A DNA stretch of 64,000 nt from Psammoneis japonica (GCA_008632985.1 QPGO01000044.1:186001-250000), one strand, 5' to 3'. Counted from the stretch's first letter, positions 16,305-61,600 are shown. The notes: generated by a model from the letters alone, not told the origin. Numbers and translations: made by a program.

Positions 16305-17430
16305 AAAACATGCACTCTCAAGCAGAGGTTGGGTGGCCAGCCACTGCACAGGGCCAAACAGCCCCAGTGGTGCAGCCAGCTGTGTCGTCATTGCAGCATT
16401 TTTTGTTGCCATCACATGCACTGCATTTCCACACCTGTCTCAAAGCAAATGTTGTCACCACCCACAAATTGCTGACAGTGACAGCCAGTGAGAGCAACAA
16501 GAACTCAACAACACTGGCGCTGCACTTTCCAAAAATGACCCCTCCCCCAGTCAATTGAACGAAGAGCCCCCCCGGAGCTTGTTGTTGGGTTTCGATCAAC
16601 TTTGTCAACAGCTTTGCATTCAGCCAGATTTGGTCAATTTGTTGGTTCATTTGTCAAGCAAGGATCATCTTGTGGCATTGTTCATGTGTGGTGGTGTGGA
16701 CACGTGTCAAACAGGGTTGATCAAAATTCTGAAAACGGGTTCAAGTCAACGCGCACAACCATGTCTCACCACTCTTCCTTTGAGCAAAAGTCATCATGTG
16801 GAACGCCAATGGTTTTGGGAAAAAACTGCTCTTGATGCATCGGCGAAGCACAAATGTGCAGCAAAAGCACAAAAAAATGTTGACCCAAACCCTGTTTTTG
16901 TGATTTTTGAACCAGCGCACATGGCTTGTCTTCACACATTGTTTTGTTGAAGTTTCGCGGCTTGCCGACTGGCACACGTGCTCAGTCTTGCCAATCCTTG
17001 ATCTTGCCACATGGATTGCAAACACATCTCTGATGTCATTGCCACTGTTGTCATGACAGCCAGGTGCAGAAGCTGCAAAGGAGTGAGCATGAGACCTGCA
17101 ACTCGCTCATGAGTTGCGAAAATAAACTCGCCATGTCATCAGCAGTCTCGCCAGCGGCAATGCTGTCTGTCTGTCTGGCAAAAACTGCATCACACCCCAA
17201 TGATGTTCCAACAATTGTTCTCTTGGCAGTCAGCATGTGAGGGGTTGCAACCATGGTCCACTGCAGCGACCACTGTGCTGATCCACTGAGGCGGTGGCCG
17301 GGAAGAATCATCCCAAGGGATGATTCGTTGAGAGAGACGCATGCCGGTGGGACGGACGGACATCGATGAGCGAGCGAGCGCGCGCGGCGATCGACAGCGG
17401 GAGTTTTCAGTTTTGAGTGTTTTGCAAAAA
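16305..17430. mobile_element. Degenerate, unclassified repeat/TE-like block, TpA-depleted
   Basis: TpA essentially absent (one AATAAA at ~17121); only Tyr-free ORFs; no recognisable domain. Confidence 0.45.
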
Positions 17431-33739: not shown

Positions 33740-36000
33740 GAAGTTCCTCCTGCTCTGACCAGAACTGGCATTGGTGTGTCCAACCATTTGGAAATGCAAG
33801 AGATTGCCCATTGTTTCCAGTTGACATCCAATGACCCCAGTGCCCTGCTGTGTTGGCGATTGGCCACACTGTGATTCTCCATGCCCTCCAACAGAAAGCA
33901 ACTCAAGACCCTTTGGTCAACAAGGTGTCAATTTATTCAAACTGGCAATTCCCAACCTTTGCAGACCTTGTCATGGAGTTTCTCTCTCAGGATTGACACG
34001 TGTTGCAGTGCTGACTTGTGGTTTCCTTGATTGGTTGTTTCTTTGCAGGTTGTCTTGTTGCGCCACTCCTTGATTGGTTCAAGGGGATGCTTGGCTCCAT
34101 GGGACAATGTTTGTTCAACTTTGTCCCACAGTGGATGACACTGCATTAGAAGGGGGCGAAGTGCATCAATGGATCGGAACTCTGAGCCACAGCCCAGGAT
34201 GGATGTTTGTTGTGTGCTTCAAGTGCTCTCTTGAGATCCAGGTTGAAACATTGAGAGAGGATCATCCAGTTTCGTTTGGCTTCATTTGCAGGCTTGATTG
34301 TTGGGTGTTGTGGCCAAGAAGGCCGGGGTGGATCAAGTGAAGCATTCAAAAATTGTCTCTTGCTGGAGGTTGGTGAAGGAGATGAGCAAGTCATCTGCAT
34401 CACTGCGGACTGTTGCGTTGGCGCAATCTTGTTCAACCAAAGTTGAGCACGCTGGTCAACATCAAAGAGTGCCTTGGCCAGGAAGGATGAGTCTTTGGCC
34501 TGTTGGTTGTCATGCAAGATGCCATGTTTCTTGACATGGTGAATCCAGGTGAGGAGGTTTTGGGTCACCAGGGAGTTTTTGCCCATGACAATGGCAAGTG
34601 GGCTTGCAAAGTTTTGGATTTGGAAGGACAGAGTGTTGGCTGTGGCAGGCAACTTGAGCTTCTGTTCTGTGATCGTCTTGATGTCTTTGTCTGGCAACCC
34701 TTTTCCTTCTTTGACTTGCAAATGAAGGCACATTGCAGAGGCTGATGTTGTCTTGTTGTCATTGCTGCCTGGGGAGACAGGTGGGACTGAAGTTGTTTGG
34801 GAGATCATCTCTGTCCCAGAGGAATTCTCCACCTGGCATTGCTGCAATGGTTCCTTGCTTGAGGACTGTGAGGCAACTGAATCTGTTCCTGAGGGTGTGT
34901 TGTGCCCAGTTTCTGACTGCAGTGAATGTTGGTTGTTTGAAGAATGAGGATGCAAGATCGGATGGACTGGTGGGTGCGGTGTCACCATCCAAAGATGATC
35001 CAAAAAGGATCATTCATTGGGAGTGGGCTGCCAATTTCTCAAAATTGGCTGTCTTTTTCTCCAGGCATTTGCTCTGATCTGATCATTTGGATTGCAGGTG
35101 TGTCATGAGCTTGGTGATGCTCAAAACAACACCTTGCAGCATTGCATTGGAGGTGACACCTGGGTGGTTTGTCGCAGTGTCACTCAATGCAATGGAGGAC
35201 TTGTCAAGTTCTTCAAAGCATTGCAGAACTGCTGCATTGGCGACAGCACTTTGGGTGAAGGCTGGAATCTTGTTGTGGGCAATGGCCCAAAGGGAGGCAG
35301 CAAGCCATCAACAGAAGTTCTTGGATGTGCTGGGACAGTTTTTGTCACCTTTGTGAGCTTGATCGCAGTCATTTGTGGCCAAGAGGGTGGCAATTGGTGG
35401 TGGGTTGGATGCAGACCAGTCATCTTTGTCCATGAATCGGCTCGTTGTGAATGAAGGGAAAGGGGCAGCCAATTGGATGGAACATGGCTTTGGCGGCTGA
35501 TTCCAATTGAGTTGGAGGGGCAATGTTGTCTGCTTGTTTGTCAGCTGATTCCAGGTTTTTGATGTTGTTCCAGGTTGGGGTGTTAAGTTTCATTGTTGTG
35601 AAGAAGTCTTCTGAGTTCACTTGTGCAGAGCATGCATGTGAGCCCATTCCAACTGACATTGCATGGAATGTTTCCGACTGGAGTCTTGTGCCACCAACAA
35701 CAGCACAGTTGTGGAGCAGAACGGGATTCCCTGTTGCTTGGCATGCACTGAGGAAAACTGTGTCTCCTTTGAGATGCATTCAATGGCTTGATTCCACAGG
35801 AGTTTTGTGTGGAATCTCTCGCAGAGAGCCCAACATGTGATCTGTGTCATCGTTCAACAGTCGGTTCACAAAGAAGTTTTTCCAGCTGTTTGCCAGCAAC
35901 ATGGCAGACAAATTGTTGTCTTTTAAAGACTGGGACAACTTGACAGAGCTTGCAACACATGACAATGATTGTCACAGCATTGTCAACAACTTCCAAAGTC
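33740..36000 (-). mobile_element. Relic of a DIRS/Ngaro-like (tyrosine-recombinase) retrotransposon: ORF1 plus start of RT
   Basis: HPLWDKVEQTLSHGAKHPLEP...GNHKSA resembles the pre-RT region of Ngaro-like elements, from memory; ORF1-like DSSFLAKALFDVDQRAQLWL; TpA-depleted. Confidence 0.55.
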
Positions 36001-36683
36001 AACTGTTGACCATCGGCATGTGAAATTGAATTCACCGAATGTCGCACGCGCAGCCGAAAGAATTGACAAATCTGTCTGGTTGTCCTTCCGTCCAAATTTT
36101 GTGTGTCACACGCACTCTCCGCTCTGACTCCGAGGACCAACAAAGCATGCAGCAAGGCCAGAGTTGGGGCGTTTGCCCATGAAGTGCCTGCAGAGCACAG
36201 AGGCCTGAGCTGGGTGGACTGGTCCATCTGGCAACCCCCTGAGCAGCAACTGCCACAGGAAACTCGGAACCTCAACCATTGAAAAATCAAAAAATTCTTG
36301 GTGGAATGAACAACATTGGTGACAAGGAACCTCAAACAGACTGCCTGGAAGCAATTGCCAAATGGACATGTGCAGCAATGAAGACAATTGAGCCAACTCA
36401 AATGTCTGGCAACAAAGAAGTGTTGGGAGTGTGCTTCCATGGACAAGGTGGGCATTGTCGGCAAAACAATGACAATGATGACAGCCACTTGGCAAAGGAT
36501 GAAACAATTAGAAAGACTGTTGACATGACAAAATTTGAAGAAGAGTGTGACAGAAGAAAAACAATGCTCCTTGCTGCCATCCAAACAGCAGATGAACCTC
36601 TGTGGAGAGACTGCCACAGGAGCTGAGAGGTGCGCATCACAAAGCCAGGCTGTTGTTGTTGTTGTTGTTGCTGCTGCTGCTGC

Positions 36684-36715
<32 letters not shown>

Positions 36716-37500
36716 TTTTTGGGAGCTGAGTGGCTCAAGAGCAAAGCCACATCAATTGCACAAAAGCACATGGAGCCAAAAGCACACAAACCTGTGTTGC
36801 TGGCAATTGGAGTGATGAGTTGAAAACCCCTGCAAGGGGGGAAGCCTTTGTCATTTTGCATCAGCTGGGAAGTCAAACACAAGCAAACACAGGAAAGCAC
36901 ACCTCCAATCTTCAGTGCAGGCTGCAAGCTTCTTCTTGCAGTCATCCTTGTGGACCTTGCAGAGCTGGGGCGACCAGAAGAACAGCGGTCTGGGGTCGTG
37001 GATGTGGAGCAGCGGGCATGGCGCACTTGTGGCAAAGCTTGAGCTGGGGCATGCACGCACAAATTGTTGTGCACAGAGCACAGCAGAGACCTCTGAGTTG
37101 GGCAGCAGAGATCTCTGAGTTGGGGGGGGGGGGGGGGCTGGGTTGTCTGGTGACCCCCTGAGCAGGAACAGCTGCAAGGAGCTCGGAGCCTCTCAGCTGC
37201 TGGAAAATCTTGAAAGTCCCAATGGAGTCAATGCACCCAGCAATGAGAAACCTTGAACAGATCAGAGAACAGTTGCCAAGTTGGCACACCTGACCCGCCA
37301 ATTGCTGCAGCTGAACCAACCCAAGTGCACAGCAATGAGGAAGTCATGCAGGTGCTTCCACCAGTGCAGCGTGCGTTGTTGGGGCAATGACGATGTTGGC
37401 TGCTCAGCGGACAAAACAGTGGGCAAGGCCGCCAATCTGATGGAAGATTAAGATGAGCATGGCAAAAGAAAAATGACATCGGCCACAAAATGGTTTTGCC
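36000..37500. mobile_element. Degenerate repeat DNA related in reverse orientation to 26.3-27.1 kb
   Basis: Reverse complement of ~36720-36760 matches TTGAGCCACTCAG at ~26440; KVHKDDCKKK (minus, ~36950) versus KVHKDNCERK (plus, ~27020). Confidence 0.6.
36651..36713. repeat. (TGT/TGC)n trinucleotide microsatellite
   Basis: About 21 consecutive TGT/TGC triplets. Confidence 0.95.
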
Positions 37501-43411: not shown

Positions 43412-43912
43412 ATAAAAGGTCAAGTTGATGAAAAGAGAAGAAAGTTAAAGAATGGCACGTGAGTTGACAAAACTTTGTTTCGTGTTACATTTATATGAAA
43501 ACGCTGATTAAATTGACATCAGTTAGTTTTAGATTGAGCAAATTTTACCTTAGTGAAGCGCGCATGAAGCGATGCAGTTATGTAACTAGGGAACTCGCCT
43601 GACGGATGAGGGGCGAAACGCTTGTTTGGAATTATGCTCAGGTCATGATAATAATCACAATCTACACTCTCCTTAGGAAAACAGTGAATCTTTCACGACA
43701 TGCGGGCATACACAACACGTATCGTACTCTATATATCTCTCAACTACCTAAGATAACACAACCCACCTTTTGCCTTTTTCCGTCGTACCACTAATTTAGA
43801 ACTGGCGGCCGACATCGCATCGAACTCTCACTTTGGTTGTTCAAAGTCACCATCATGGTCCAGTCCGGCACTTCCAATCACGAGCTACTCTTGAGCGTCC
43901 TGTCTATCGAAG

Positions 43913-44074
43913 TGAATAAATTACCCTGTAGTCGCATGAACTAGGGATAAGACTAAAAGAAAGGCTTGTAACATCGTGCTACTTTTCTAGAAGTGAAATC
44001 TAAACCTGGGGAACCGCCGTGCGCCCAATCGCCAATGACAAAGCACACCAAACTAATTGGAATTGATAACATGG
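43913..44074 (-). repeat. LTR-like direct repeat, copy A (3' LTR; retains TA/CG)
   Basis: TG...CA bounded (TGAATAAATT...GATAACA); homologous to 54121-54287. The true LTR may extend further. Confidence 0.75.
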
Positions 44075-45423
44075 TCGAGTCGGCTTGACCCAATTTACTC
44101 TCCGGCCGCATTTAGTCACTCTGGCGTGACAAGGAAACCCTGGCAACCTGCAACAACCCCATGGGCAAAAGGGAACCGGATGTGACAGACGACCAGTCTT
44201 CACAGATGCCATGGAGAAGCATGCCCACAAGTCCATCTTGCTTCATGCTGCCATGCATGATCTTGATTGCAAGATCTGCTGGATTGCATTCCAAACGAAT
44301 GTGTCCAGTGAGTGACTCACCCATTGCCACCGACTCTTGTGTGGTGTGGTGGCAAACAGAGTTTGACTTCTTCTTCAAAGTGGACTCTGGACTTTGTGTG
44401 TTGTGGACAACTGACATGTTGTCCCTGCAGATGTGGGGTGGACCAGCCAGCGGCACGCCCATCATCCTCAGTTTGTGTCGCAAGCCATGCAGAGACTCCA
44501 TGTCCTGCTTCATGGCTCTGCAAACTTGGCTCCAAAAACCAAGGTTTCAATCATGCTTTGGCACTTGGAAAACCACGTGATCAAGGCCATCTTCATGATG
44601 TGGATGAAGAAGCTGGTGCATGAGCGTCTTGTCAACTTGTCATTCACATGATCCAAGTTGACGAACAAGCACAGATCAACCTCCAAGCACAGAGGTTCTG
44701 GCACATTGGGTGGGATTGCTTCCTGCACGTCCCCATGAAATGACCTCCAGTCTCATTCTTTGAAGTCAGACATGTCAATGTCGGGATGTGTTGGGTTGAA
44801 CACCAACCTGGCATTGTGTCTTGCCTTGAGGTGTCCACAGACATGGAACATGGCCTCAAGGAGGTGACCCTCCCTGGGCACAGCAAGAAACAAGGCAAGC
44901 TCAGAAACCTCCATTGTCAGGTCGACACATCCAAGTTCCACTGTTCGTTGCAGGACACCCACCTGTGACTGGCAGACCATGCACCTGTCTCAGGACGACA
45001 GTCCCATGGAAATGGAGCTGATGCCTGACTTGGCAACGTCCGTCCAGGGTGGCATTTGTCCAGATGCACCTCCACATTCTTGATGGCCTGCTGGATGTGC
45101 TTGCTGGAGCTCATGCCCCATGCATGGATGCCATTTGGCATCTGCACCTCTCAGATGTTGGCACCCAGATGCATCTCAGGGTCGCCAGTTGAACCAGGCT
45201 TCATCTTGAAGCAATGATCCAACTCCTTGGGTGTGCTCATGGCATCGTGGTGTGCCATCAGTGCATCATCCATGTGCAGCAGTGCATGCACACAGTGCCA
45301 AAACCTGTCCTTGGGTTGGACTGCTTCCTTGAGCCATGCATCGGGATTGGCCAAGCAAGGCTTCCACCCAAGATGGTGCATGCAGGAGGCCAGGTGATTC
45401 CTGAAGGTTGCGCCTGTGCCTGT

Positions 45424-45712
45424 GCTCTTCAAACCGCAAAGTGTGTGCTTGACTGTCTCACACCTTCCTGCATTGTGTCCCAACTCTGGGCCCAGAGTCA
45501 TGGTGATCTTCTTGCTGTTGGGGGCAGCAATGCAAACACCCTCAATGTCAGTGGCCTTAACCTCCAAGCTCTTCAAACCGCAAAGTGTGTGCTTGACTGT
45601 CTCACACCTTCCTGCATTGTGTCCCAACTCTGGGCCCAGAGTTGTGGTGATCTTCTTGCTGTTGGGGGCAGCAATGCAAACACCCTCAATGTCAGTGGCC
45701 TTAACCTCCAAG
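45424..45712. repeat. 144-bp in-frame tandem duplication within the Copia RT
   Basis: GCTCTTCAAACCGCAAAG starts at 45424 and 45568; the copies are identical except for one CA/TG dinucleotide. Confidence 0.95.
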
Positions 45713-48700
45713 CAATTCAGAGCAGCCAGAGTGGAGGCAATCCTCACACTCTCACATGACACAATGCTGGCGCACATCAAGGTGGTGGGAGTGTCAGTGG
45801 TGCATCCACCAGCTGCATGGCATGCCTTGCACTTGAAGTCTTACAGCTTTACAGACCAAGTGACATCTGATGTGCTGGCATCCCACCAACTGCTTGTTGT
45901 CATCGATGATCTCAAACGCCTTGTCAACCACACCCATTTCCTTGTCTGCAGCATCTTGCCACATGCAGTTGCTGTTTGCCTGGTCAATCTTGACTGCCTC
46001 TTCATGCATCTTGGGAACATGCATCCTGCACTTGTGCACTTGCTTGTGATGCTGCTTGCTCACTGCAGCAATGATCTGCAGGCATTTCTTAAAGGTGTGT
46101 GGAACACACCATGCAAAAGCTGGTTCATCCTCAATTGATTGGGCTCTGGCACATTTGGCCGGTTCGACAGGGTTCGATTCCTTGAAGTCTGCAAGGCATT
46201 CCCATGTTGTGGTCCCATCCTTCCAGTGCACACAAAGGTGTTGTCCTTTGGTTGTCTTGTGCATGGTTTGGCATCCTCTGCTGTCCTGCAGAAGGTGGGC
46301 GTCATCCTTCTAGACTGCATGCCCATTGGTCTTGTGATCAACGACAGTGTCCAGAAGCAAGCACTGGTTGCCCTTGTTGTTGCATTGCATGGACATGTTC
46401 TCAGCTGTGACATTGGCCGCGAACTCATCTTCCTGGCCATCAGGAAATTTGACCTCATGTGCATGAGCATCTAGGATGGGATTGGCACTGGATCTGCCCA
46501 TCGGTGTTCCATCCAAATCGAGCTTGTGCCGTTTGACTGTCCCGGTTTGTTGGGTGTCCCCGCGTGGTGGCAACACTTCTGAGTTCACACAAACATCAAA
46601 AGCGGCATCGGGTGCATTTTCCTTGTCGGGTGCAATTGCAGGAGCCTCCTGGTTGGCATCATCTTCACGCGGATTGAAAGTGGGGGTTGTGGCATTGGGG
46701 TCATTGATGTCCTTGACCGTCACACCCGGACCTGGCTTGGCCTCTGTCAGCCCATCGAACTTCTTACGTGATGCCAAGTGTGTCTTGTGGCACTGTTCCT
46801 TAGGGCTCAAGGGTCAACAGGATGAATGGTGGATGACTTGTCCATTGTTCTTCAGCATCTTTGCCATCACAGCCCAACCTGTGCTGTGGCTTGGACCAAG
46901 GTGACGGCCTCAGACCTCCTTGTTCTCTGGGAATGAGATGGCTGTGTCCCCAAGCATGACTCAGTCACACCAACTGAACTCACTTGTGTGCAAAATGTCA
47001 GCTGTCTGTCCAGACACTGTGGTTTCTGGGACCTCTCCCTCCAACTCGTAAATGTCATGGACAGTGTAGAATCAGATGAGAGCTTCAAGCTCAAGACAAT
47101 CATCCCAAAGACATTTTGGGGATTGAGTCTTTGCCATCTTGTGTCCTGCACCCTGCTTGAGTTCACAAACAGTTCCCTCAGCAAAGTTGGACTGTGGGGC
47201 ATGCAGGGTTCAGTCTGCTTGATGTGGCAGTTGGCCTCCCTGGCCTTCTTGCTGAACTGACTCAGTGTCTGCTCCTTTGGCCCATCCATGATCATCATGT
47301 GGGGTGTGCCATCTTGCGCAAAGAGCAAGAAAAGTGCTTCATGTGCCAGTCCTTTAGATCTGAGGGAACAAGCCCATCCCCAACCATTGGACATGCCAAA
47401 GACCTGAGCACAGGCATTGCAACTTCTCAACTTGGTCTCAAGGAGATCAAGGCATTGGAGTGCATCTCCTTTGCAACATGCCTGTGCTGCAGCTGTTGGT
47501 TGTTGATCCAAAACCTCTGAGACAGTGTTGGATGAAGGACCATTTGCATGCCATGCTGCACCATGACTTTGACAGTGTTCTCAGCATCCTTGACACTGAT
47601 TGACCAATTCTTGGCCAAACGTTCTGCATCAATGTGCAGTCCCCACTTCATTGTCTTGAGTGAAGAGAGACTGATCAAGGCCAGCATCACATGGTCATCA
47701 TGTGCATGCAAGATGTCTTAAAGTGGATCTCTCTTGCACCATGGTGCATGAGAGCTTTGTGCTCATGATCTGGATCTGAGGATGCGCATTGTCCCTGGTC
47801 TCAGGCACATGACCAAGAGAGTCCATCATGGAATCCTCTCTGGCTTCAAAGTCAGCAGTTTGTGGGTCCCATTCTGGGGACTTGCAAGCAAGTTTTGCTG
47901 CCATGCCATCTTGCATGGCTGCCTCACACTCCAAAGCAGCAGGTTTGGAAGTGGGGGAGCAACTTGTGACCCCTTTGAGTTCCAACAGAATCAGGAGGTT
48001 GTCCCCATTTGCATCTGTTAACGTCACTGCATGTGACTTGCTGTCAGGCTTTGTCAGTGGGAATTTTGGTTGCAGGTTGACTCCCATGTCATTCAGCCAT
48101 GACTGTGGGACACAAAAGGTTGTGTTCAAGGTTCAGGACAGCATGCACTGCCTGGTGGACTGCCAGGATTCATTGTTGGCCCGAGGCGGGGTCAGCACAA
48201 GCAATGGCTCTGCTTGCAGTGTGCAGGCTCTTGTTGGCACCTTGTTCTGGGTTGCAACCTGTGACATCTGCTGGGCGATTGTGGTCAAGTGAAATTAAAG
48301 CAGGCTTGCCTGGTGCACTCATGTCTGCATGACCATCTAAGTCAGTGCAAGCTTCAGTGCATGTGGCTTCCTGCACGGTCATCTGAGTCATGCACAGAGT
48401 CCAAAGCGGGCTGAGACCTGGGGTTGGAGAGGATCACTCCTTCTCCTTCCTGCCAGGTTTGGGGTGTCCTTCAGAAACTGGAAGTTGGAGTGGTTGTGCT
48501 TCTGCTTGATGACAGGCCTTTTTGTGGTTTCCTTGGACTCACTGGCACTTTTGTCCTGCTGGTCCTCAACATGAGTGGCAATGGCTGCAACCACACTGGC
48601 AAGGGCCTTGATTTGTTTTGAGTTCTCAGCCACAGACATTGTGCCCTGGCCACTGCAAGAGTGTTGCACAGAGACTTGAGCTTCTTGTGAGGTTTTGGGG

Positions 48701-49499
48701 ACACTCGCTTGTGCTCCTTGTTGGGACAGTGCTTGTCCTCAACGTCTTTCTCATGAATGATGTCATTGCACTGGCGCTTGGCAGACTTCAAGGCAGCAAT
48801 GTGGAGCTTCTTGGTTTCACCATCCGGCTTGGACTGCTTGATGAAGTCTTTACAGAGGATGACACACCCATCAAAATCACTGTGCAGTGGTGTGCCAGCC
48901 ACAATTTGTGCTTTGATGGAGTCAAGGGATGCACCCTTGACACTGTCCACAAGGTGGCGCACCTTTGAGCACTCGTCAATTCCAGCACAGCCGCGCTCCT
49001 TGAGACCTTCAAGGACAGAGTGCTGTTTGACATGAACACACACCAAGCACTCGAAGTTCCAGTTTTGGCATTTGTCGTGGCAGGAAAGACCTGCTGAGCA
49101 CTTTTCAGCCGTGCTGGCCATGTCATCTGCGTTGTTGGGGCCCAAGAAGTGGTTGTGCCAATTCAGGTGGGCCATCCTGCCGTCCTGATTGTGCTGAGCC
49201 TTCTTGATGCATGCCCAACATGAATGTTTCCACGTGATCCCAGCAACAATCTCCCAAACCTTCATGTCATTGGCGGCAAATGTTTTGGTGGGCTGTGGGT
49301 CAGCCCCCTTGGCAAAGTGGGGGGCATGGGCAATCATTTTGGCGCAGGCATTGGCACAGCCGTCAGTTGTTGGCATCGTCGTCTGCCTCCGGCATCACCG
49401 TCTGAGTCCCTTGGACCATGCAGGCCAGGGGAATGTTGGTCTCCCTGCAACAAGCATGAAGATGCTCGTGGACAGCTTCCATCATCTTCGGCCAGTCCT

Positions 49500-52400
49500 G
49501 GCCTGTTCCGGCTCCAGGTGATCCGCAAGGGTTCGATTCCCATCATTTGCCCATTTTTGCATTTGGCGCATTGGACTTTTTCAAAATCCGTTTTTTGCCA
49601 AATCGAAGGGCAAGTGTGCACTTTACATGTATTTTCGGGTGTACAGTCTGCTCGCTCTAACATGTGCTGGGGGGCACACATGAAATTTCAGCACATGTTA
49701 TAGAGAGGGTGTGTGTTGTCCCTCCCTGGTGCAAATCTACGTACATTGATCCTGTGTGCAGAAACTGTGCAAGGTTTTGTGCAGGGCCCTGGCAGATCTT
49801 GCACATGCACCAGTCCACCAAAATAAAACAAATGTGAAAGGGCATCATTTGCAGGCAACGGGAAAAAAATGGTCTCCACACGGTGCAGTCGCCACCGGTG
49901 CTGTTGTGCACATGCGCGCAGCACAGTGGCCGTCATCGAACCTCTCGTCTGTCATCACTGCAGCACTCATTGGCACATTTCAAAGAGTCCCTCCCTTCAT
50001 CAATTCTTTGCTTCTGCCACAAAGACAGCCACCAGGACTGGTTCTCAGAGGTGCGTCATTGTCAATGAGGGTGTTTGGAGTCATTGCAAGTCTGGTCCAA
50101 TGGGCCTTCACCTCAAACATGGTCTTAGAACAGTGATGTCTGGCCTTCATCCACAAGGGTCAAGCCGGATTTTCAGCACATGTCACAGAGAGGGCACATG
50201 TTAAAAAGTGTGTGTTGTGGCAAGCAGACTGTGCACTCACCTTTTCATTTTCAAAAAGATCAAAAATGAAGGAGTTGAATGTGCTAAAATGTGATTTTCG
50301 GCTGGTGTCTCACTCCACATGAAAAATGCTTGTGATCGCTCACTTTTTCATTTTTCAGAGCTTGTGTGTTTGGTCTTCTTCAACTCAACTGACGTCCAAA
50401 CATGCCTCATTTCTACATGCACCAAACAGTTAGTTTGTTTGAGCATGCCAAAAAAATGTGTCCTCTTGACTTGCCATCCGTCTCATCCACCAGCCCTTTC
50501 GTTGCACAAATTTCAATCAAATTTCCAATCCATCATGGGGAAGAAGAGGAAGAAGCAAACTGGAGTTGGCCATTGACACAAGTCAGGGACTGGCAACAGC
50601 AAAAACAAAAAGCCTTGTTGTGAACTTAAAACACACTCCAAGGCCTCTGCCCAAGTTGATGCCGAAGCTGAAGGAGCTGCAGCCACTCCCTCCAACCCCA
50701 ACCATGACAATGCCACTGTCACTCCCTCCATTGCTCCCACCAACCAAGCTCCTTCCAACCCAAACCCCTCCACAGAGCACCCCACTCATTGTTCAGGGTT
50801 GTCCTTTCCAAGACAACCTGGCCCCTCCCAAATGCACACTGCAGGAGCAGCCGCCACTCCCTCCAACCTCACCTCTGACAATGCTGCCATCACTCCCTCT
50901 GTCACTTCTGCCAACCCAACCATCACTTCCGCCAACTGAGCTGCGCACCTCCACAGATTGCCCCACTTTCAATCCTCATGCATTTGAAGCAACCCACAAA
51001 GATCCACAACAAGCGCTGTGTCGTGCAGTGGTCAAAGCAAGAGAAGCAGTGTTGTCTTGCGCCACCACTCAAGAACAACAAATCTGTGCCTTCATGTGTG
51101 CTTTGCATTTTCCTGATTTAGCCCCACACGTTGAGGCTTGTAATTTGACACTGTCAAAAACAAATTCTGTGGCCTTGCAAATGACCCAGCAGTTGGGCAA
51201 AATGTGGGCACGTGCCAATGGCAACAACAATGGTCAACACCACCTTGCCAACAACAAAAAATCGTTTTTCCGTCCTGTGGCAATTGGAATCTCCAGTTCT
51301 CCAGAAAAACCTGCTGACGAGCCCAAATTGTCTTCCTTTGACCATGCCAATGCACTTGGCCTGAATCGAAACACTGTTTGTTGCCAAATGAAGCAGGGAT
51401 TCCCAAGCAGTGTCAAAAAATGAATGCAAGTCAATGCAGCATGTGTCAATGCGGTGATTGCACCAACGCAAATTTTCTGCAAGATGTGTTGAACAGGTTT
51501 CGAAGGAAGCTTTTAAAAGAGATGGAGGTGGAGCAACAGCAGTTGAAGGTTGCAAATGAGGATCCTGAAAACTCCAAGAACTGTGACCATGCCACTGGCA
51601 AATTGGAGGAAACAAAGTGTGGCTGTCAAGAGGAAGCGTTTGGCCCCAACAGCCATCACCTTCATCCCAAAGCCCGAGATGCAGTTGCAACCATCATTTG
51701 CGGCAATCTCAATGGTCAGGATCATCCTCATTGGAAATGCATTTTGGGTGAATGCAAGCATTGCCCATCCTGTCCAACTCCATTGTTGGAACAGAATGAA
51801 AGTCCCAGTGCTCCCCAAGTTTTGTTTCAACGTCACTTGACTGTAAAAAGTTGTTCCAAGCATGGCATGTTCATGGAAGCATGTCCTGTTTGTGAGGCAG
51901 ATCCAGATGGGAACCAGGATGCAAAGGTCAAATGAAGGACCTTGTTGACAAGGTTCTGCAAACCAGTCAGGGTCTTTACACAAGAGCACTGCATTCCCAT
52001 TCCAAGTTTAAAGAAGCTGCATTGCCACCTTCCCCATGTGGCAATTCTTGGGAAAAATCATTGCATGAAATTGCATCACAAAGCATTTGAGTCAATGCCC
52101 AACAGCATTTTCACATCTCATGACTGCTCTGAGCATCAGAAGGCAGAGTTTGACAAACAAGTTCAGGGTGATCATCATGGCAACAACCAAACATTGTCAA
52201 ATGGAGGAAGAGTTTGCGATGCAATGGTTGACAATGAGCTTCAGAAAACACATCATGCGCGTCTCTCTGACTCTTCCAAGCAAGATGCCACCACCACCCC
52301 TGCTCACTTGGAAAAGTTTGGCACCTGGTTAAAAAAGAACCACAACCTGTGTCATGCATGGCTTGTGATTTGGGATTTGGGATCACACCGATGGTTGTGC

Positions 52401-53045
52401 CAAACAGCACTGATGTGCTTTGGCACTGTGCTTGTTTTCTGTGTTTGTGCACAAACACAACATTGTGTTTGATCATGCCATTGGAGCACCTGGACATGGC
52501 AAAGGAGAGGTTGATGGAATTGGAGCCTGTGCGCAAACAACAACACAACAAATTGACTTGCTGAATTCAAAACAAGAGAATGCAAAGAGATGGTGTCATC
52601 CACAACAACAGCAACTCTGCAGAGCCGCAATTGCACTGTGACGACAATGATGCAACTTTGAAATGAAAGGAACAGAGGGTTCCACACAAAACCGCAAGGG
52701 CAAAGAGGGGGTTGCAGAGCGGTGACAGTGGTGTGCTGCATTGTGGCTGGTGTTGTTGTGTGTTGGGTGGATGGCACGTGTTTGTAGAAGTCAGTGTTGT
52801 TCTGCACATTGCCAGAAAAACACCAAATGCCAACTGACACGATTCTTCCTGTGACGCAATGTGCACCTTGGTTGTTGAAGATGAGCATTGTTGTCACAAA
52901 TGTGTGGCATCATTGGAGTGATCAATGTTCACAAAAAGCCAAAAGGTGCAAGCTCTGCTGGGTGGAGACAAAAATGTCTGGTGCTGTTGACTGCATGGAA
53001 AAACTACCATGATGAAAAGCTGATCACCTGGAGCTGGAACAGGCC
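49500..53045 (+). mobile_element. Cut-and-paste DNA transposon (Sola-like) with 24-bp TIRs and a 4-bp TSD (TCCT), inserted in the Copia gag
   Basis: TIRs 49500-49523 GGCCTGTTCCGGCTCCAGGTGATC and 53022-53045 (23/24 match); TCCT at 49496-49499 and 53046-53049; transposase relic with WDHTDGCAKQH*C and AIGAPGHGKGEVDG. Confidence 0.88.
51380..52640 (+). pseudogene. Degenerate DDD-type transposase of the nested element
   Basis: CILGECKHCP Cys cluster; DCSE..K.EFDKQVQGDHHG; LSDSSKQDATTT; TDGCAKQ; GHGKGEVDG; interrupted by frameshifts and a CGA->TGA-type stop. Confidence 0.75.
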
Positions 53046-54120
53046 TCCTTTTTGATGACAGCAGGCAGGGCCTTGGGGTTCTCCTGGGATGTTTCCACCT
53101 CATGGAGATGGCAGGGCCCCCACACTTGGTTGAGAGCAATGTCAGCAGCACACAGCACACATGAGATGCACTCACAGTGACAAGCAGCAAATGCAGCAAG
53201 CTTGAGATTCATCTCAGCCCGCAGCAATGCGGTCGTCCCCTGGTTGGGTTGTGGATTTGCTCCACCACCTGCTGCACCTCCTGGGCAATGTGCAACCTTG
53301 CATGAGGTCTCAACCTCACACATGGTTGTTGAGATCATGCAGCTCCTCAACTGCATTGATTCCCTGGTCTGTTGCAAGGGACACTGAAGCTTCATTCATG
53401 AAGTCCAGTCAGCAGCATGCAGAAGACATGACTGCAACATTGGCTGCCATGGTCAATGGCTTGGTGGTTCAATGTTGATGATGAGGAAACTCTTTCACAT
53501 GAGTTGTGTGGTTCTCATGCAAAAGTGAGTGAGTTGCACAAAGTTCAAATCACTTTTTCATTGTTGCATGTGAATCCGTTGGTTTGTTGGACCAATGTGT
53601 CCATGTTGAGACTTGTGTGTCTGCACAAACCAACATGTGCTCCCACAATCTTCCTGATCAATGCTGGTGGTGAGTGCAAAGCACTGTTTTGGGGATCATG
53701 CGGTGTGATCACATCATTGTGTCTGGACATGACATGTGAGTTTAGTGACCAATGGATGTCATGTCGTGTTAAAATCTGTGTGTGATGTTGTCACCCAGTG
53801 ATTTCAAATTGCTCAAACATTTGCCTCCAAGATGACTTTGGAATGGAAATTGCATCCCAAATCCATGGATTGTGCTCTGTGTTTGTGCATGTGTGCTGTG
53901 ACACATCAGAACAGACAATGCTGCAGTTGCTGTCAACAAGCATTTAAACTTGCACTGATTCTGGGAGCACAGAACTCGTCAAACACAAACACCTCTTGCA
54001 TTCGTGGGTGTTTTTTAGCCATCCCTAACTTTTGTGGAACGTTCTGTGGCATTGCAAATTGTTCGCAAGCAAAGATGATGCTCAGAATCATTGTGTTGTG
54101 TGGCAATGGCTCTGACAAGG

Positions 54121-54287
54121 TGAATGAATTACCCTGCAGTTGCATGAACCAGGGACAAGACTAAAAGAAAGGCTTGTGACATTGTGCCACTTTTCTAGAA
54201 GTGAAATCTAAACCTGGGGAACCACCGTGCAATGCACCTGATTGCCAATGACAAAGCACAACAAACTGATTGGAATTGACAACATGG
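54121..54287 (-). repeat. LTR-like direct repeat, copy B (5' LTR; hypermutated)
   Basis: Aligns to copy A; followed on the minus strand by CCTTGTCAGAGCCA, which resembles a decayed tRNA-Met PBS (TGGTATCAGAGC). Confidence 0.75.
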
Positions 54288-54289
54288 CA

Positions 54290-57200
54290 AATTCTTCAGA
54301 AGAGCGTGGCACACGCAATGGAGTTCGTGGAGAAAAGGTCAGCAGCCCAGTGTGAACTGACATGATGGTTGGTTGCAGCAGAGACCACTGCAGCAAACAA
54401 GGTGACATTTTGGCCGTTGCTCCCACAGCTCATTGCCAGCACCAAGCACTGTGCTCTTCTCATGGTGAAGGTTGGCAAACTGTTTGAAGGTGTTTGTCTC
54501 AACCAGTTTGCCAAACAAATTTGGAAGGATGTCTTCAATGAGTGCGCATCTTTTGCTCCCATGACACTCATGTTTGGCAGCAGCATCAACCCACCTCCAC
54601 ACCTGCTGCACTACATTGGTGGGTTTGGGTGCAAAAATTGGAGTTCCTTGATGAGTTTGGACTCATTTTTGCTGTGAGCTGTTTTGCACTCATGCACTTG
54701 TTCCCAGTTGCTGTTTTTTGGAATGGACCAAATGCAAGCTGTCACATTGCTAAATTGACAGGTCAACAAGGCCATGCACATGACAGTTGATCAGCACAAC
54801 ACAATGTGCTGTTGCCATGTTGTGAAATCATGTGGGCAACCCATTGCCCATCTGGCAATGGGTGCAGGCATGACCACATTCATTTGAGTCTCACAGTCAG
54901 TCTGTCACCAGTGTTTGACATCGTCAACAAGGTTTCAACCTTTTTGCATGATGAGTGTCACAAATGAGTGTTGAAAGATCTTGTCACCAACATTTGTGCA
55001 GCTGGTGCAGTGCAAACAAACAACAGCTGGGAGTGCAATGTCCTGGCATTGACAGCAATGCACAGCTTGATGGATCTGCTGGAGCAAGCAGCGCTGCTCA
55101 CCAGAGCACCAACAGCCAACCAGCTTCAGGTGAGATGACAGATTGTTTGCTTTGTGGCTTCACTCAACAAAGCATGGCTGTCACCACACATGACATTGTC
55201 AATGAAGCATCAAACTCTTTCCATGCTTGCAACAAGCTCAAGTTGCAGAAATTGGTGATCATGGCATTTGTCAGCAACTGCAAGGAGCATGATTTTGGAA
55301 GTTTTGACAAATGAACACAAACTGAGAAGTTCCAACAAATGAACATCAATGTTGAACAAAAGGGTCAGTTGTGTCCAATTGTTGCTGCCACATTGGCAAA
55401 GCTTGGTGCTCCAAAACTGGTCACCAACAATTGTTTGTGCTTGTTTGCAAAGGACAGTCCTGGTGCCACTGTGGGCAGCAGGGATCTCTTTGAGAGCAAG
55501 TGCAGCATTGGAAGAGCTCTCATCATGATGCATGACCATTTGGATTTGTTGCCTGCTGTTGCATTCATCCACAAGAAGTTTGCTGAACCAGGTGCTGTTG
55601 ACAACAACTGCTGTCTAGCTTGGCAAAATGCACCAATTTGCTGGACCGCTCCTTGTTGTCTTTTGTTGCATGGTTGTCTGCCAGGAAGAACTTGCAGCTT
55701 GACAAGGATCAAGCCAAGCTGGAAGAGTTGCAAGTTCACTTTGACAGACCCCACAGACTTTGCTCAACAAGAGCCACCACAACTTCCATTGCCAGACATC
55801 ATGAGCTTCATGGCAGTTGATTGTCTGAGCATCAAGAAGGCAAAAGAAGTGTGCACAGCATTGAGCACAAAAGGCACAAGGATGGAGAACACCTTTGTTC
55901 TGTCAAACCCAGCACTGTTCAATGCAGCAGGCATGTGCTGGGCACAGACTCTGTTCACTGGGACCATTTGCCACCTGCCAGTTTGAAACGTTGATGCCAG
56001 CCATTGCACAAAGCCAAGGGGGGTGCTGTGAGAGCTTTTTTGTTGCACTTGTTGTTTGGTGCAAACTTTGGAAACAGGTGCTCTTGATTGTGGAAGTGTC
56101 TTCATTGTGCAAGAAAGTTGGTTGTCATGTCACCAGTGTGACCAACAAAAAAAAAACATTTTGGCTTTGAAAGCAGTCACTTTGTTGTTTTCCATGGCTC
56201 TGTTGTCTGAGAAGAAAGAGCTGATGGCACATGACTGTCATTTGTTGGAGGAAAATGGGCCCATCATGTCTCCTCTGGTCATGATGAAAGATGACCAGGG
56301 ATTTCTCAGGGTGCACTTGGACTGATGTGAGACAGCCCTGTTTGTTGTGCCAATCATTTGTTTGTCACTGTTTCTTTTTTGTTTCTGAATCTGTTGCTCT
56401 CGCATCCACAAAGCTCAAGAGTGCAATCTGTGCATTGCACTGTGCTCACAACAAGAAATTGTTGCTTTGATTTGCAATCCAACTGAACCAATGCAGCAGA
56501 AGCAACGACTGCCTGGAATGTTGTGTTGATGCACACACAGTGCAAATGGCAGCAAGCTCCAGCTGATTGCAGTTTGTTCAAAGCAACAGGTGGATGGACA
56601 GGTGCTGGGTGCATTGGGTGTGCTGGCAGATTGGTCACTGCATGGGTGCACTGGTTTGTCATTTTGTGAGTGGGGGTGAATGAGTTGCCAGAGGGCAGAG
56701 GGCAGCATGGAATGGCTGGTGAATGGGCTGGCAGATGTGTTGAGACAGGCACAAGCACAAAGCTGGGTTGGCTGATGCTTCTGTCTTTGCTGTTTTTCCA
56801 GTTGCTGCTGCTCCTTGAGCTTCAGCTCACTCTTCATTTTGTCTGTCCTTTCTTGTTTTGCACACTTTCTGACCAGAAGCTTTGTTGAACATGATTGGAC
56901 AACATTGGCACACTGAAATTTCAACACATGAGTGAAGTTGTTCAACAGCACGCACACACAGATAAATGCGTGCATCATCTTGTTGAATGTTTGTGCATGG
57001 CAAAAATGTTGAATCAAACTTTCATCAATTCACCCATGCACATGAATGCAGCACATGAGGCACAGAGGAAAAACAGGTCATGCAAACATCATTTTAGTTG
57101 TGCAGTGCAACAAAGCAACATGTGATCTGTAAAATTGAACTGCAATCCCTGCACATCAAGGTCCAAACAGTCTGTGTGCAACCACTGCAGAGGCCAGTGG

Positions 57201-60200
57201 TGTTGGACATGCAGTGGTGTTGAAGTGTGCTGCTGTTGGCAGTGCTTGGGCCCTTTCATTCCAGATGTGTGCACAAGTTTTGGTTGGTGGAAATGAGTGA
57301 CTTATGCTGGTTGACCAGTGTCTGCTGTCTGGTGCCAATGTTGAGGCCACAGACATGCCAAAGTTAAGAGCAATTGACCACACCGCCCACCAGGAAAGGA
57401 GGAAGATGTGGCAGCAACATTGGAAGAAAGGCAGGAGAGCAGCAAACAAGAATCCCCAATGCTGTCTTTGCAGTCACCAACTTGTGAGCCACAAGAGCAA
57501 GAAGGCATTGGGAAGAAAGGGAGAGACAGAACAGAGCCAAGGCAATGAAATGGAAAAGGAAAGATCTGGAAAAGCAGAGGAACAGCACATGAGTGCAGGA
57601 GGAAAAGGCTGAAGACAAACAGGAGGCTAAAGACAATGCCAGCACTGAGTCACAAGATCCACCAGAAGAACAACTTTCCACTTCATCTGATGACAAGGAG
57701 GTGGACAATGCACCAAAATGTTCACAGGACAATGATGTGTCTCTGCTGTCTTCACCAGCTGCTGAAGGGGCTGCGTGTCTGTCCAAGCCATTTGCAAAAA
57801 AGAGCTGAGTTGACACAGAGACACTGTCATCATAAGAACAACAGATGCTCACAGTGCCAACTGAGAAAAGCACAGTGTTTGACATGGCTGGTGAAGCCAT
57901 GCTTGGAATCAATCAAGAGCAAAAGAGGTGGTGCCATTGTCCACACCAGGGATTGATGACCCCATCATGCACAATGCCAAGTCTGTCACAAAGGACTGTG
58001 TGTTGCCAGGCTGGCAGAATGCTGCATGCACCACCCAACAAAGACAGTGTCTTGCTGCACCAAAGAGTTCATGATGTGCAACACAGCAATGTCATGCACA
58101 ACAGTGATTTTGCAAAGCACATGCCAGACAATTTTGAGAAGAAGCCATCAAAGAAGCACCCAAACAACATGAAGTGCAAAGACCTGGTGTTCCATGAAGA
58201 GGCCTGGGGCAGGAAACTTGGCACCATGGCAGTTGCCAAGTGCTCTGCAAAGCATTCAGAAGATTTTGGGAGTGCGCTGAGTGCAAGAGTGCAACAAATG
58301 TCAGGTGAGTGATGCCTGCCATTGATTGCACTGTGTGTGCCATGCAACTGACATGCTTCATGCCACCATGCATTTGCACAGTGTGCTGGGCAAAAACACC
58401 CAAGATGGGAGCAAAAGATGCTGATGCAGATGGGGTGCTGGAAGAGATGTGGTGACTCCTGCAAAATGGTGGGGGAAGAACCCTCCAGGCAGGGAACTCA
58501 GCATGGATTTTTGTGGGCCTCTGCCTTTCTTTGCAGCTTTTGTGTTGCCACTGGAGAAAAGATTCTCCAATGAACAAAGCTGCATGTTGCTCATGTCAAA
58601 CAAAATCAAGCTCCACAACAACCTCCAAGTGCACACACATGGGGGAAGACACTGGCTGAGTGCACAACCACACAGGAAGTGGAAATGATCATGGTCATGC
58701 TGGACAATGTCATTGCAAAGAATGCAACAGATCCAGAAAAGTTCAAGATTGGAGCAAAAGGGCAGCTGTGGAGGGTGAATGACAGAAAGGCTAAAAAGGC
58801 ACCATCACATGGCATGGGGTGGGAGAAGCACAAGCAAGCATTGGATGAAAGTCATTGTGCTGAGGACACCAATGCACACCCAGACCACTTTGGCCTCCAA
58901 GAAGCCAGTGCTGCACATCAGAAGATGAAAAGAAAAGGGAAGAAGAGAGCTGTCAATGTGCCACTGGAAGCCATTGACTTGGTGTTTGGCATCCCCAAAA
59001 GTGGCAAGGAGAAAGTTTTTGGCAGCTTGGCAAACTTTGTCTTGTGAGTGTGAAAACAATGTTTGGCTTGCAAACTGTGTGCAATGAAAGCACCAAAATG
59101 ACAATAGAAACAAAATGCCGCTGATTGTGACAGCAGTGTTTTGCAAGCAGCCAAGCTCTTTCAAGTGACAGAACATTGCATGGCACAAGTCATGCAACAT
59201 CACAAATCATGTTTTGACCAATGTGAAAATTTTGCCCTGCTTCAACTGGTTTCAGAAATTTGTTTGCACCTTCCTGGCAGCACCATTTCACAAGAAAGCA
59301 CCACCAGGGAGTTGGGGTTTTGCGATGCTGCCCCAAAACACTTGTCTCCAGCTGGAGGACCACAACCATGTGACAGCACAAAGAATCTGAAAGAGTGATG
59401 GTTGCAATGGTCCAAAAAAGATGGTGGTTTGGACACCTTGTTCATGTGTTAATTTCACCATCATTTGCGATCTTTTCTTCTTTTTTCTCATGGCTGGCAG
59501 GCATGGTGTCACCACGACAATGGTCTGGTGTGCACCATCTGGAGTGTGCCCACCACACACCAGTTTGGAGCAGGCCCACAGCAAGCATTTTCTCCCAAAC
59601 ATGCACCCGCGTCATTTTGGAATTTGGAATTTTGTTCTGCTGCAACCCCACCACCATGCCACAACCACAACTTCAGCAATGGCCAATGAAAGTGACAAAA
59701 AGGACAACTGTTCAGACAGAAGAGCAATTCAAGAACTTGTTGGACTTTGCAGTGTGAAGCTGTTGGGTGACTCATTGCACAATGACTCAGCAGGTTTGCC
59801 GGGTGTGTCTCCAATGCCAAAGAAAAAAGCAAGGCAAGTGCGCTCCATCATTCATTGGGGCTGGATGTCAGGGTCAGTGGTTCTTTTTTGTGTGGATCTG
59901 GAACATGGGGGCAATGATTGCGGAGAGGCTCAGCTGATCTTTGTTGCTTGAAATTGCATGACGAAGTCAATTTTGGGTGAGCCACACATGCATTTGCCCC
60001 AGTCCCACATTTGCATTGGTTGGAAGAGAACATGAGTGTGCAGTTTGTTGATTTCAGTGAATCCCATCTTGACAATGGTGAGCAGACAAGCATCATCATT
60101 GTGTGGGGCAGAAAGTGCTGCTGGACCTTGCGGGGAATTTGACAAGAATGCAACTCCATTTTGACCACAAGGACAAGTGGAGAAGGCAGTGGCCCATTTT

Positions 60201-61600
60201 GGCACAAATTTGATGAGGATGTCAAGGGAGGAATCCTCTTGATCTTTCCTTTCGACAAGCAAAAACCTGCAACGGAAAAACATTGCATCATCAACGTTGA
60301 CTTTTGACAATGACACAGTGGTCAGAAGAAGATGCCAGCCCTTCTGTGTCACAACCTCCAATGCTGCAGTGCATCGCTGAAAAAGCTGTGTTGCAATCAG
60401 ATGTGGTGGCTTGGTTGTCACTCTTGGGTCCAAAAACTGCACCAGCCAGTTGCAAGCGAGACTCTGATTGGTTGCTTGTCCACTGTTTGCATGTGTTGCA
60501 GATCTGACTGATGACAAAATGATGTCCAAATGTTGCCATCCAGTCTGCGCAGTTTCAGCCCATGATCCTGTTTCCAAATTTCTTTCCTCACTTGCATGCA
60601 TGCATCCTGACAATGTCAAAGTTGCGGGGAGACCCCATGTGCTAAAATGGGTTGAACAGACTCAGCCCTTTTTTGAACCCTGCTTCCTGCTGGTTGAGTT
60701 GTTTGTTGAAGCTCTTGGAGATGGTGACCTTTTCAAGCATTGCCGCCCATTTCCTGTTGCCACAGTCATCAGAGTCAATTGCACAAGCTTGCCATGAGCC
60801 GCCATGAACAACCAAGTTGGGGTTGCATTGAATCCACGCACATCAACACCAAGTTTGTTGTTTTGATGTCACCAGAAAACATTTTCAGCAACTCTGCGAC
60901 ACTGCTTTGAGACAGAAAAAGCTGTGGGAAGATTGGTTGGCAGCAAATCAATTGCTCAGTTAACCAAACAACAATGTTGCACCCTTTCCAAACAAACAGC
61001 ACCACTGCCTGTTGGCACTCTAATGCTGCTGACTGCCACTGCATCAGCTGTTGCCATGCCTCTGCCAACCACCACACCAGCTGGCTGCTCCAAGGCCCCC
61101 AATTCCTGCACTGCCCAGCTGCTCCAATGCCTCCAACTTCTGCCGCGCCGCATCACAGCTGCTCCAACACCACCCACTCTCTGTGCAAACTGGCTGCTCT
61201 GGCCAAACTGGCCGCCATGCCACCTGGCCACTCCAACGCCACCGACTCTTGCACCACCTGGCTGCTCCATGCGGTGTGCTCCCATGCTGCCCAGCCCACA
61301 ACATTTGGAGATGAGTGCAACCTCCTTGTCTGCTGCTTGCACACAGACTTTTCCAAAAGTGCTCTTCAATCTGTCCAATGTGAAAAAAATGGAAATGCAC
61401 AAGTTGTGAGAATGGAGCACCGACAGCAGCAAAATCCAAGAAGGGAGTTTTCACCCATTTTTGGATTTTCTCTGTTGCAACACTCATGTTTTGTGCAGGA
61501 AAAAGTTTGGTGACAAAATCAAACAGCATCTGTGAGTCCATGTTTTCCATGGGTCATTGGACTCACGATGGAGAGTGTGTCCCCTCGAACTCATCGTCCT
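54290..61600. mobile_element. Further degenerate, unclassified TE-like DNA, TpA- and CpG-depleted
   Basis: Same dinucleotide signature; fragments of formerly coding sequence (e.g. 55339-55986, 59930-60619) with no family I can name. Confidence 0.55.

Follow-up and report, generated by a model that had tools for sequence, protein, structure and literature searches.

Killing repeats by point mutation follows a known logic, represented by repeat-induced point mutation (RIP) in fungi, by APOBEC enzymes and by methylation-driven CpG decay. To our knowledge, RIP-like DNA hypermutation of transposons has not been established outside fungi, TpA is no known target of methylation-driven decay, and no natural DNA-level adenine hypermutator of transposons has been described. 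Enzymes of the ADAR and TadA/ADAT types, which give an A to G outcome with a preference for a 5' U/T, act on RNA; the natural target of TadA is U-A-C, and ADARs prefer a 3' G. Here, a 64,000-nucleotide stretch from Psammoneis japonica (GCA_008632985.1 QPGO01000044.1:186001-250000), termed the window and numbered from its first letter, was analysed around the remnant of a Ty1/copia-type retrotransposon pol. The loss of Tyr from this remnant is shown to be the coding footprint of saturating, strand-symmetric transitions of TpA to CpA or TpG, which are confined to transposon islands and lie on top of a slower, graded decay of CpG to TpG/CpA.

RIP consists of C to T changes, mainly at CpA, that create TpA (PMC2621366, available sections). 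A RIP-like hypermutation of transposons in Pucciniomycotina, as outlined in PMC3318451, involves CpG-biased C to T changes and leaves an excess of TpG/CpA, while APOBEC3 enzymes edit retroviruses and long terminal repeat (LTR) retrotransposons (PMC4866542, available sections). In diatoms, transposable elements (TEs) are CpG-methylated according to the relevant passages of PMC5124317 and PMC9998398, the latter of which also describes DNMT4 enzymes that are related to RID and are of unknown function. No description of TpA-to-CpA/TpG transposon hypermutation, in diatoms or elsewhere, was found in full-text searches of the literature (subscription journals and supplements were outside the scope), nor does a report of it appear in the available parts of PMC2806351, PMC9998398, PMC5124317 or the preprint 10.1101/2025.10.24.684338.

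Conserved tyrosine codons of the copia pol remnant

The closest full-length relative of the remnant, P0002 (1165 aa), matches window positions 47711-44214 by tblastn with its residues 37-1155, in six pieces and three frames. The features of the element are listed below (RT, reverse transcriptase; RNase H, ribonuclease H; ORF, open reading frame; R, Y and N denote purine, pyrimidine and any base throughout).

44112..47711, minus strand: degenerate Ty1/copia-type pol (integrase-like region, RT, RNase H), located by tblastn of P0002
45265..45276, minus strand: RT catalytic box HMDD (YVDD in relatives), Tyr codon 45274-45276 now CAC
44466..44483, minus strand: LRHKLR (LRYKLR in relatives), Tyr codon 44475-44477 now CAC; Tyr in 15/20 relatives
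47203..47214, minus strand: TEPC (TEPY in relatives), Tyr codon 47203-47205 now TGC; Tyr in 5/5 aligned relatives
45424-45441 and 45568-45585, minus strand: two copies of LCGLKS (from LYGLKS); Tyr in 70/74 and 46/68 relatives, respectively
44346-44357, minus strand: CHH (from xYH); Tyr in 11/18 relatives
44418-44435, minus strand: HICRDN; in relatives, first position Tyr in 4/20, second position Tyr in 8/20 and Phe in 7/20
45424..45711, minus strand: tandem duplication of 144 bp inside RT (45424-45567 plus 45568-45711)
48471..49394, minus strand: putative gag, a TA-free ORF of 307 codons upstream of pol, so named by position only; no family match

Homologues were collected by a HMMER search of 1.84 billion representatives with the RT frame 44647-45840, in which TGA was read through for the search only; 2235 proteins matched at E ≤ 0.001 and 26 at E ≤ 1e-30. 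Pfam RVT_2 is present in P0002 (E 1e-14) and in two further relatives, P0007 (E 2e-10) and P0022 (E 3e-21), and PF07727 occurs in 48/54 near-length homologues retrieved by a second homologue search. By homology alone, the window element is assigned to the Ty1/copia-type (RVT_2) retrotransposons. The relatives are proteins from aquatic metagenomes and genomes. With E values as high as 10 admitted, its own pol and gag ORFs gave nothing relevant in Pfam; none of P0002, P0007 and P0022 matched a Pfam integrase family at E ≤ 0.001, and the integrase ORF of the window, used as a homologue query (longer proteins), had no match. The remnant is collinear with P0002, where a TEPY-type motif (residue ~206) precedes the RT (637-833), and positions 48092-48406 on the minus strand align to the N-terminal part of the polyproteins of two relatives. 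Full-length relatives (1000-1900 aa) are of normal composition and contain 3.0-4.8% Tyr; the aligned frames of the window copy, 1081 codons in all, hold 2 Tyr, 67 His, 50 Cys and 8 in-frame stops. The copy is dead, displaying five frame changes, the 144-bp RT duplication and a replaced Tyr in the catalytic box in addition to its stops, and the proposal of the initial annotation that the process destroys TE function is borne out.

Among the best 150 matches, 142 relatives are Tyr-normal (Tyr ≥ 2.5%) and were mapped onto the window by tblastn; seven with Tyr < 1% and one in between were left out of this set. A column was considered conserved when 10 or more Tyr-normal relatives aligned there and one residue accounted for at least 60% of them, which applies to 419 columns. 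Tyr is retained by the window at 0/21 conserved Tyr columns, 11 of which now read CAY (His, CAT/CAC) and 10 TGY (Cys, TGT/TGC); because two columns are doubled by the tandem duplication, 19 of the 21 are independent. The remaining conserved columns are kept in 286/398 cases (Fisher p = 1.1e-11 against Tyr), with individual controls at 18/19 for Lys, 24/25 for Pro, 37/42 for Gly, 21/26 for Glu, 21/28 for Asp (p = 3e-8 against Tyr) and 12/17 for Phe (p = 2e-6). Under looser limits (≥ 5 relatives, ≥ 50% Tyr), 30 columns are obtained, comprising 14 Cys, 12 His, 4 other residues and no Tyr.

The relatives keep Tyr at these columns and the ancestral codon was therefore TAY, such that the change ran from TA to CA or from TA to TG, while the near equality of His and Cys products is the expectation for hits on either strand. 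The initial annotation had recognised His and Cys as the two products of TpA mutation and had argued that the loss of catalytic Tyr fixes the direction of change. Both points stand, the first by the 11:10 ratio over 21 columns and the second by relatives such as those aligned at the YXDD box, where the column is Tyr in 127/137, His in 2 and Cys in 2. Intact relatives do not share His or Cys at the Tyr columns, and Tyr is lost far faster than the Phe and Asp controls, which the annotation had proposed for comparison. Conserved Tyr was likewise correctly supposed to underlie five of the six altered motifs (HMDD, LRHKLR, LCGLKS, xHH and TEPC), for which relatives are mostly Tyr. The sixth, a change of YIYGDN to HICRDN, is sustained only in part, the motif being weakly conserved among relatives, with Tyr in 4/20 at the first position and in 8/20 at the second. 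The count of Tyr to His/Cys changes constitutes the cleanest polarity test of the whole phenomenon.

A parallel CpG footprint at Arg goes beyond the initial annotation, which did not mention it. At 22 conserved Arg columns, 8 residues are kept (5 as AGR), 7 codons read CAN (His/Gln) and 5 read TGY (Cys). Considering all changed conserved columns (n = 133), 70 are explained by reverting CA or TG to TA or CG, and the rest comprise 11 with a single transition outside these contexts, 13 with mixed transitions and 39 with a transversion. The direction is TA to CA/TG plus CG to TG/CA. In the seven Tyr-poor relatives left out above, the Tyr columns are occupied by His in 28 cases, Cys in 25, Tyr in 1 and other residues in 6, and the choice between His and Cys at one column varies among them. 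Their existence means that the phenomenon is not private to the window locus.

Dinucleotide balance, tempo and sequence context

The pol remnant is embedded in the largest of the hypermutated islands of the window, which are as follows.

44115..61600: largest island, TA-free, CG-poor and CA/TG-rich, holding the copia remnant; interrupted at ~49600-49850
25600..31450: island with a further copia RT fragment on the plus strand (29249-29610) and with repeats that show many CA/TG discordances
34000..37440: island sharing a repeat family with 26.5-27.1 kb
7400..9750: smaller hypermutated island
16300..17300: smaller hypermutated island

TA is reduced 14-fold in the islands (29.9 kb), to 3.0/kb from 42.7/kb in the background (32.0 kb), and CG amounts to 14.1/kb compared with 50.6/kb, while CA+TG is raised 1.6-fold, from 144.4/kb to 230.4/kb. 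The gain in CA+TG (86/kb) is close to the loss of TA+CG (76/kb). A second proxy for the ancestral state, 80 metagenome loci encoding intact relatives, has 43.8 TA, 54.7 CG and 144.5 CA+TG per kb, compared with 3.2, 15.1 and 229.7 in the window copia, which corresponds to a loss of 80/kb and a gain of 85/kb. The observed/expected ratio (o/e) of TA has a median of 0.69 and a minimum of 0.47 over the 80 loci and is ~0.08 in the window copia. The metagenome locus L002 (4250 bases), an intact-looking copia relative, displays a CG o/e of 0.01 with a TA o/e of 0.47; such full loss of CpG without loss of TpA indicates that the two depletions are separable in other organisms. Since TA is absent from the large island, stops are almost exclusively TGA and long spurious ORFs arise in every frame: the six frames of 44100-61500 contain 842 TGA, 68 TAA and 36 TAG, against 264, 169 and 118, respectively, in 37.5-44 kb.

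These compositions might involve no mutation footprint at all, if modified bases had produced a sequencing or assembly artefact or if a living TE lineage avoided TA and CG by selection. Modified bases can give systematic miscalls on some platforms, and many RNA viruses combine CpG and UpA suppression with an excess of CpA/UpG. However, contigs built from the k-mers of a public sequencing run, X1, reproduce the letters exactly at a unique depth of ~55, with 0 differences from the window over 43382-44010, 45934-46560, 47092-47591 and 48040-49025, and a sequence artefact is unlikely. A lineage under selection is contradicted by the stops, frameshifts and replaced catalytic Tyr of the copy, by the 142 Tyr-normal relatives among the best 150 and by the 80 intact loci, all with a TA o/e of at least 0.47. 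Both variants are effectively refuted and are given practically no credence here. X1 and the window differ at unique depth at 49362 (CG vs CA) and 49457-8 (TG vs CA), where either recent changes in situ or variation between strains may be responsible.

The two depletions follow different tempos. In 300-bp windows the TA o/e is bimodal, since 101 values lie below 0.2 and 97 reach at least 0.4, with 15 in the range 0.2-0.4 between them, while the CG o/e within TA-free windows spreads from 0 to ~1. Some TA-free segments keep CG, as in 49001-49500 (0 TA, 15 CG) and 25540-26200 (3 TA, 22 CG). The TA arm thus resembles a fast switch, whereas the CG arm has the gradual progress of a slow clock. This pattern bears on a passive origin, namely a chronic bias in methylated heterochromatin in which 5-methylcytosine deamination would be accompanied by a TpA modification or repair defect. 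Such a bias would agree with the coincidence of TA-free and CG-poor regions, the CG o/e lying below 0.5 in 91/101 TA-depleted but 0/97 TA-normal 300-bp windows, and with the binary hypermethylated repeat islands of up to 30 kb that PMC5124317, in its available part, describes in a centric diatom; the TA-bearing patch at 49600-49850 could then be a young insertion. A clock, however, should leave intermediates, and TA loss has almost none while CG covers the whole range; moreover, TA is gone where CG is near normal, in both of the segments just named. As non-context substitutions are few, a passive process would need to act on TA at a rate well over an order of magnitude above the ordinary one. 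We know of no passive TpA hotspot of such strength. A passive origin is considered unlikely, and the all-or-none loss of TA, together with its restriction to transposon islands, makes a targeted enzyme more likely than passive decay.

The TAs that survive in the islands (1 RTAY, 13 RTAR, 16 YTAY and 61 YTAR, against 402, 377, 342 and 245 in the background) reveal a tetranucleotide rule, with approximate survival of 0.003, 0.037, 0.050 and 0.27, respectively. When each strand is fitted separately, survival is ~0.08 for TAY and ~0.52 for TAR, and the product of the two strands predicts 0.007 for RTAY, 0.043 for RTAR and YTAY, and 0.27 for YTAR; TA with a 3' pyrimidine is lost ~3.7-fold faster per strand than TA with a 3' purine. 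The most-gained product classes are YTGY and RCAR, as the two-strand model predicts. Within the Tyr codons, a 5' pyrimidine is associated with 7 Cys and 2 His, and a 5' purine with 3 Cys and 9 His. CG survival (0.23-0.37) follows no such context rule, which suggests that the two arms differ mechanistically.

Both strands are affected alike. The His:Cys ratio is 11:10 in the window and 28:25 in the seven Tyr-poor relatives, Arg codons yield 7 CAN and 5 TGY, and CA/TG skew at p < 0.01 is found in 2/65 island and 4/67 outside windows of 400 bp. Cys predominates among the Tyr columns of the 5' half and His among those of the 3' half. Strand-processive events were considered as a source of this regional clustering and were rejected, as the skew is not above background; it is treated as a context effect or chance.

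Copies, LTRs and the timing of mutation

Repeat pairs were taken from a stringent transition-blind self-comparison, a relaxed version of which was swamped by chance matches and left unused. Island pairs present discordant to concordant CA/TG dinucleotides at 22:50, 33:53, 27:29 and 7:34, compared with 5:47, 0:40 and 10:63 in host repeats that are more diverged. The many discordances in the island repeats indicate that copies were mutated independently. Other copies of the family in X1 differ at 402 transition and 108 transversion places, including adjacent TG/CA doubles. The two 144-bp RT duplicates are identical save for one dinucleotide, CA at 45499-45500 and TG at 45643-45644. They carry the same Tyr-to-Cys codons, such that the duplication must postdate most of the hypermutation, and their lone discordance implies that a residual TA or CG was resolved separately in each, after duplication.

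Two copies of the LTR allow a further comparison.

43901..44074, minus strand: LTR of 174 bp, TG...CA, directly after the pol stop, not hypermutated (13 TA, 7 CG)
54111..54288, minus strand: second copy of that LTR, within the island, hypermutated

Over 173 aligned bases, the pair differs by 19 transitions and 2 transversions, with 9 changes of TA to CA/TG and 6 of CG to TG/CA; four TAs are kept by both copies, three of them YTAR. In other copies from X1, 38 additional bases lie between the end of pol and the LTR, among them a purine tract that is seen only in those copies.

The spared LTR would agree with an alternative timing, in which editing would be coupled to retrotransposition, a deaminase acting on RNA and/or single-stranded cDNA in the particle so that insertions arrive hypermutated. 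The mutated zone starts within ~40 bases of the junction between the internal region and the 3' LTR, and APOBEC3G editing of HIV cDNA reportedly falls sharply 3' of the polypurine tract. Action on each insertion would also give CA/TG differences among copies, and the only classified hypermutated sequences in the window are copia-type. Nevertheless, the outcomes are strand-symmetric, whereas editing of minus-strand cDNA or of RNA alone would run in one direction; both directions would require equal editing of RNA and cDNA, and the RNA phase would not spare the LTR. The LTR copy at 54111-54288 is heavily mutated, and the duplicated, already dead RT gained its CA/TG discordance later. The preferred 3' neighbour is a pyrimidine, unlike the G of ADARs, and the largest island is TA-free over 17 kb of mixed, mostly unclassifiable sequence with no more than one or two LTR-sized spared patches. 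Editing during retrotransposition thus appears quite improbable.

Symmetric, context-multiplicative action that affects each copy and continues after duplication finds its best explanation in a process that works on double-stranded DNA after integration. The best reading, to which we assign a probability of roughly 0.6, is a post-integration, DNA-level and repeat-aimed hypermutation of TpA, RIP-like in its logic and superimposed on CpG decay. The TpA process would act on integrated double-stranded DNA, each strand probably being hit independently with a ~3.7-fold preference for A before a pyrimidine, so that 5'-TAY-3' would become TGY and a hit on the other strand would read as RTA to RCA. It would be switched on per region in an all-or-none manner, not as a slow clock, and would most likely be enzyme-driven and aimed at silenced repeats; repeat homology, small RNA or chromatin state may be its trigger. 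The simplest chemistry would be a deamination that turns adenine into hypoxanthine within 5'-T-A-Y; aminating T at R-T-A to give 5-methyl-C would be a formally equivalent alternative. The CpG arm would most simply reflect deamination of methylated cytosine in the TpA-mutated domains. That the process represents a defence of the diatom lineage, in which either a natural deaminase of adenine in DNA or an enzyme that aminates thymine to 5-methylcytosine would be recruited to silenced repeats and act beside CpG methylation, is a tentative extension. Such a TpA-directed defence, acting best at RTAY, would erase Tyr codons, ATA/TTA/CTA/GTA codons and TAA/TAG stops.

Several observations weigh against post-integration hypermutation. 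The 3' LTR and a 37-base linker are unmutated and adjoin a pol that has no TA for more than 1.4 kb, and a DNA process targeted through chromatin or homology gives no obvious reason for so sharp a step; a younger copy that recombined with this one, or a domain with a sharp edge, would produce it, although both are ad hoc. A search upstream of gag for a 5' counterpart of the 3' LTR found none, nor was a genuine 5'/3' pair belonging to a single insertion detected. Several CA/TG doubles are mostly in one state across other copies (~81% of depth at 44345-6), which suggests that some copies multiplied after mutation or that outcomes are partly deterministic. The ancestral composition is a proxy, either background DNA or unrelated intact relatives, and the survival figures are approximate for that reason. 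X1, the one public run that contains the stretch, may be the source sample of the window; no RNA run containing it is listed, which carries no information on expression. Lastly, hypermutated sequence other than retroelements was not demonstrated among the island ORFs by Pfam, two homologue searches and a protein atlas: Pfam gave 0 matches for 51 long ORFs of the other islands, frame 51342-52469 as a homologue query retrieved none, and the atlas returned no usable match for 51342-51932.

The frame 51342-52469 (plus strand) comprises 375 codons with one TGA and Cys/His-rich motifs, e.g. KCILGECKHCPSCP, and appears to be a genuine gene, though hypermutated, that belongs to a different mobile element. 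The patch at 49600-49850 that interrupts the otherwise TA-free island is normal in CG and may be a young insertion that escaped hypermutation. A segment of ~145 bp (49500-49645) has a k-mer depth of ~11,900 in X1 against ~55 for unique sequence, corresponding to ~200 copies; within it, 49533-49557 resembles, in complement, the 3' end of a tRNA (T-arm and a CCA-like end). The segment could be a primer-binding site or a tRNA-derived short interspersed element; scans of the window for tRNAs (ARAGORN) and Rfam families, 49500-49645 included, returned nothing. Outside the large island, arrays of ~330-bp tandem units in inverted orientation flank it on both sides (41677-43400 and 62600-64000). These units encode a Cys-rich module, C..C..EGACCL.SG.C...RCEN.LGG.FQG.GT.C.D.SC, and are normal in TA and CG although repeated (61-93% identical). 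In the host ORF 19779-21074, a 60-bp tandem repeat at 20857-21079 encodes a C-terminal tail rich in Lys (KMKPKLKRKPKK...). A host transporter gene elsewhere in the window is closest to a protein cluster with mostly Bacillariophyta among its known members, which marks the genome as diatom-like.

Comparison with known hypermutation systems

If the phenomenon is real, it represents a new eukaryotic way to kill mobile DNA. A natural enzyme that acts on DNA much as adenine base editors do would be implied, and diatom genes of the deaminase or DNMT4 type that still lack an explanation might be given a role. Pfam does not recognise hypermutated elements (0 matches for 11 + 51 ORFs), which means that standard TE annotation undercounts them, and LTR-divergence dating would be inflated in genomes with such hypermutation.

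The U-A-C target of TadA resembles the T-A-Y preference described here, but RNA enzymes would mark only one strand of a retroelement. An ADAR-type pattern would consist of one-strand A to G changes with a 3' G, while in the window both strands are affected equally and the 3' neighbour is a pyrimidine. The likeness to APOBEC3 is that copies of retroelements are killed by hypermutation, of which the genome retains a fossil record. APOBEC3 action, however, is deaminase-driven conversion of C to U on minus-strand cDNA, read as G to A on one strand, in contrast with the strand symmetry found here (11:10, 7:5 and 28:25) and its inclusion of A:T to G:C changes.

Methylation-driven CpG decay, as in vertebrates and plants, turns CpG into TpG/CpA in methylated transposon domains, and the CG arm corresponds to it in the reduced CG density (14.1 vs 50.6/kb), in its grading across island windows and in the change of Arg CGN to CAN/TGY; it explains the CG arm only. 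The hypermutation of Pucciniomycotina also resembles the CG arm but lacks a TpA arm, and the CG arm of the window is graded and looks slower than its TA arm.

The closest parallel in logic is RIP of Neurospora and other ascomycetes, which likewise leaves near-saturating transitions on both strands of repeat and transposon DNA, hits each copy independently, destroys coding capacity and leaves a dinucleotide signature. The two differ in direction, since RIP creates TpA and has no A:T to G:C arm, while the process in the window destroys TpA and creates CpA/TpG; a RIP-type excess of TpA is absent from the islands, where TpA is reduced 14-fold. They differ further in that the host tandem repeats of the window (80-96% identity) are untouched. 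These keep TA and CG, with 332 bp at 93% plain identity (308/332) and 640-830 bp at ~61-65%; RIP affects any duplicated sequence of sufficient length, and these repeats are perhaps too short or too diverged for it. RIP also depends on a RID/DNMT4-type enzyme and is premeiotic in its timing. Set beside these systems, three features are apparently undescribed: the arm of A:T to G:C changes directed at TpA, the saturation of this arm, and its tetranucleotide rule. The enzyme activity behind them has a substantial chance of forming a new category of its own.

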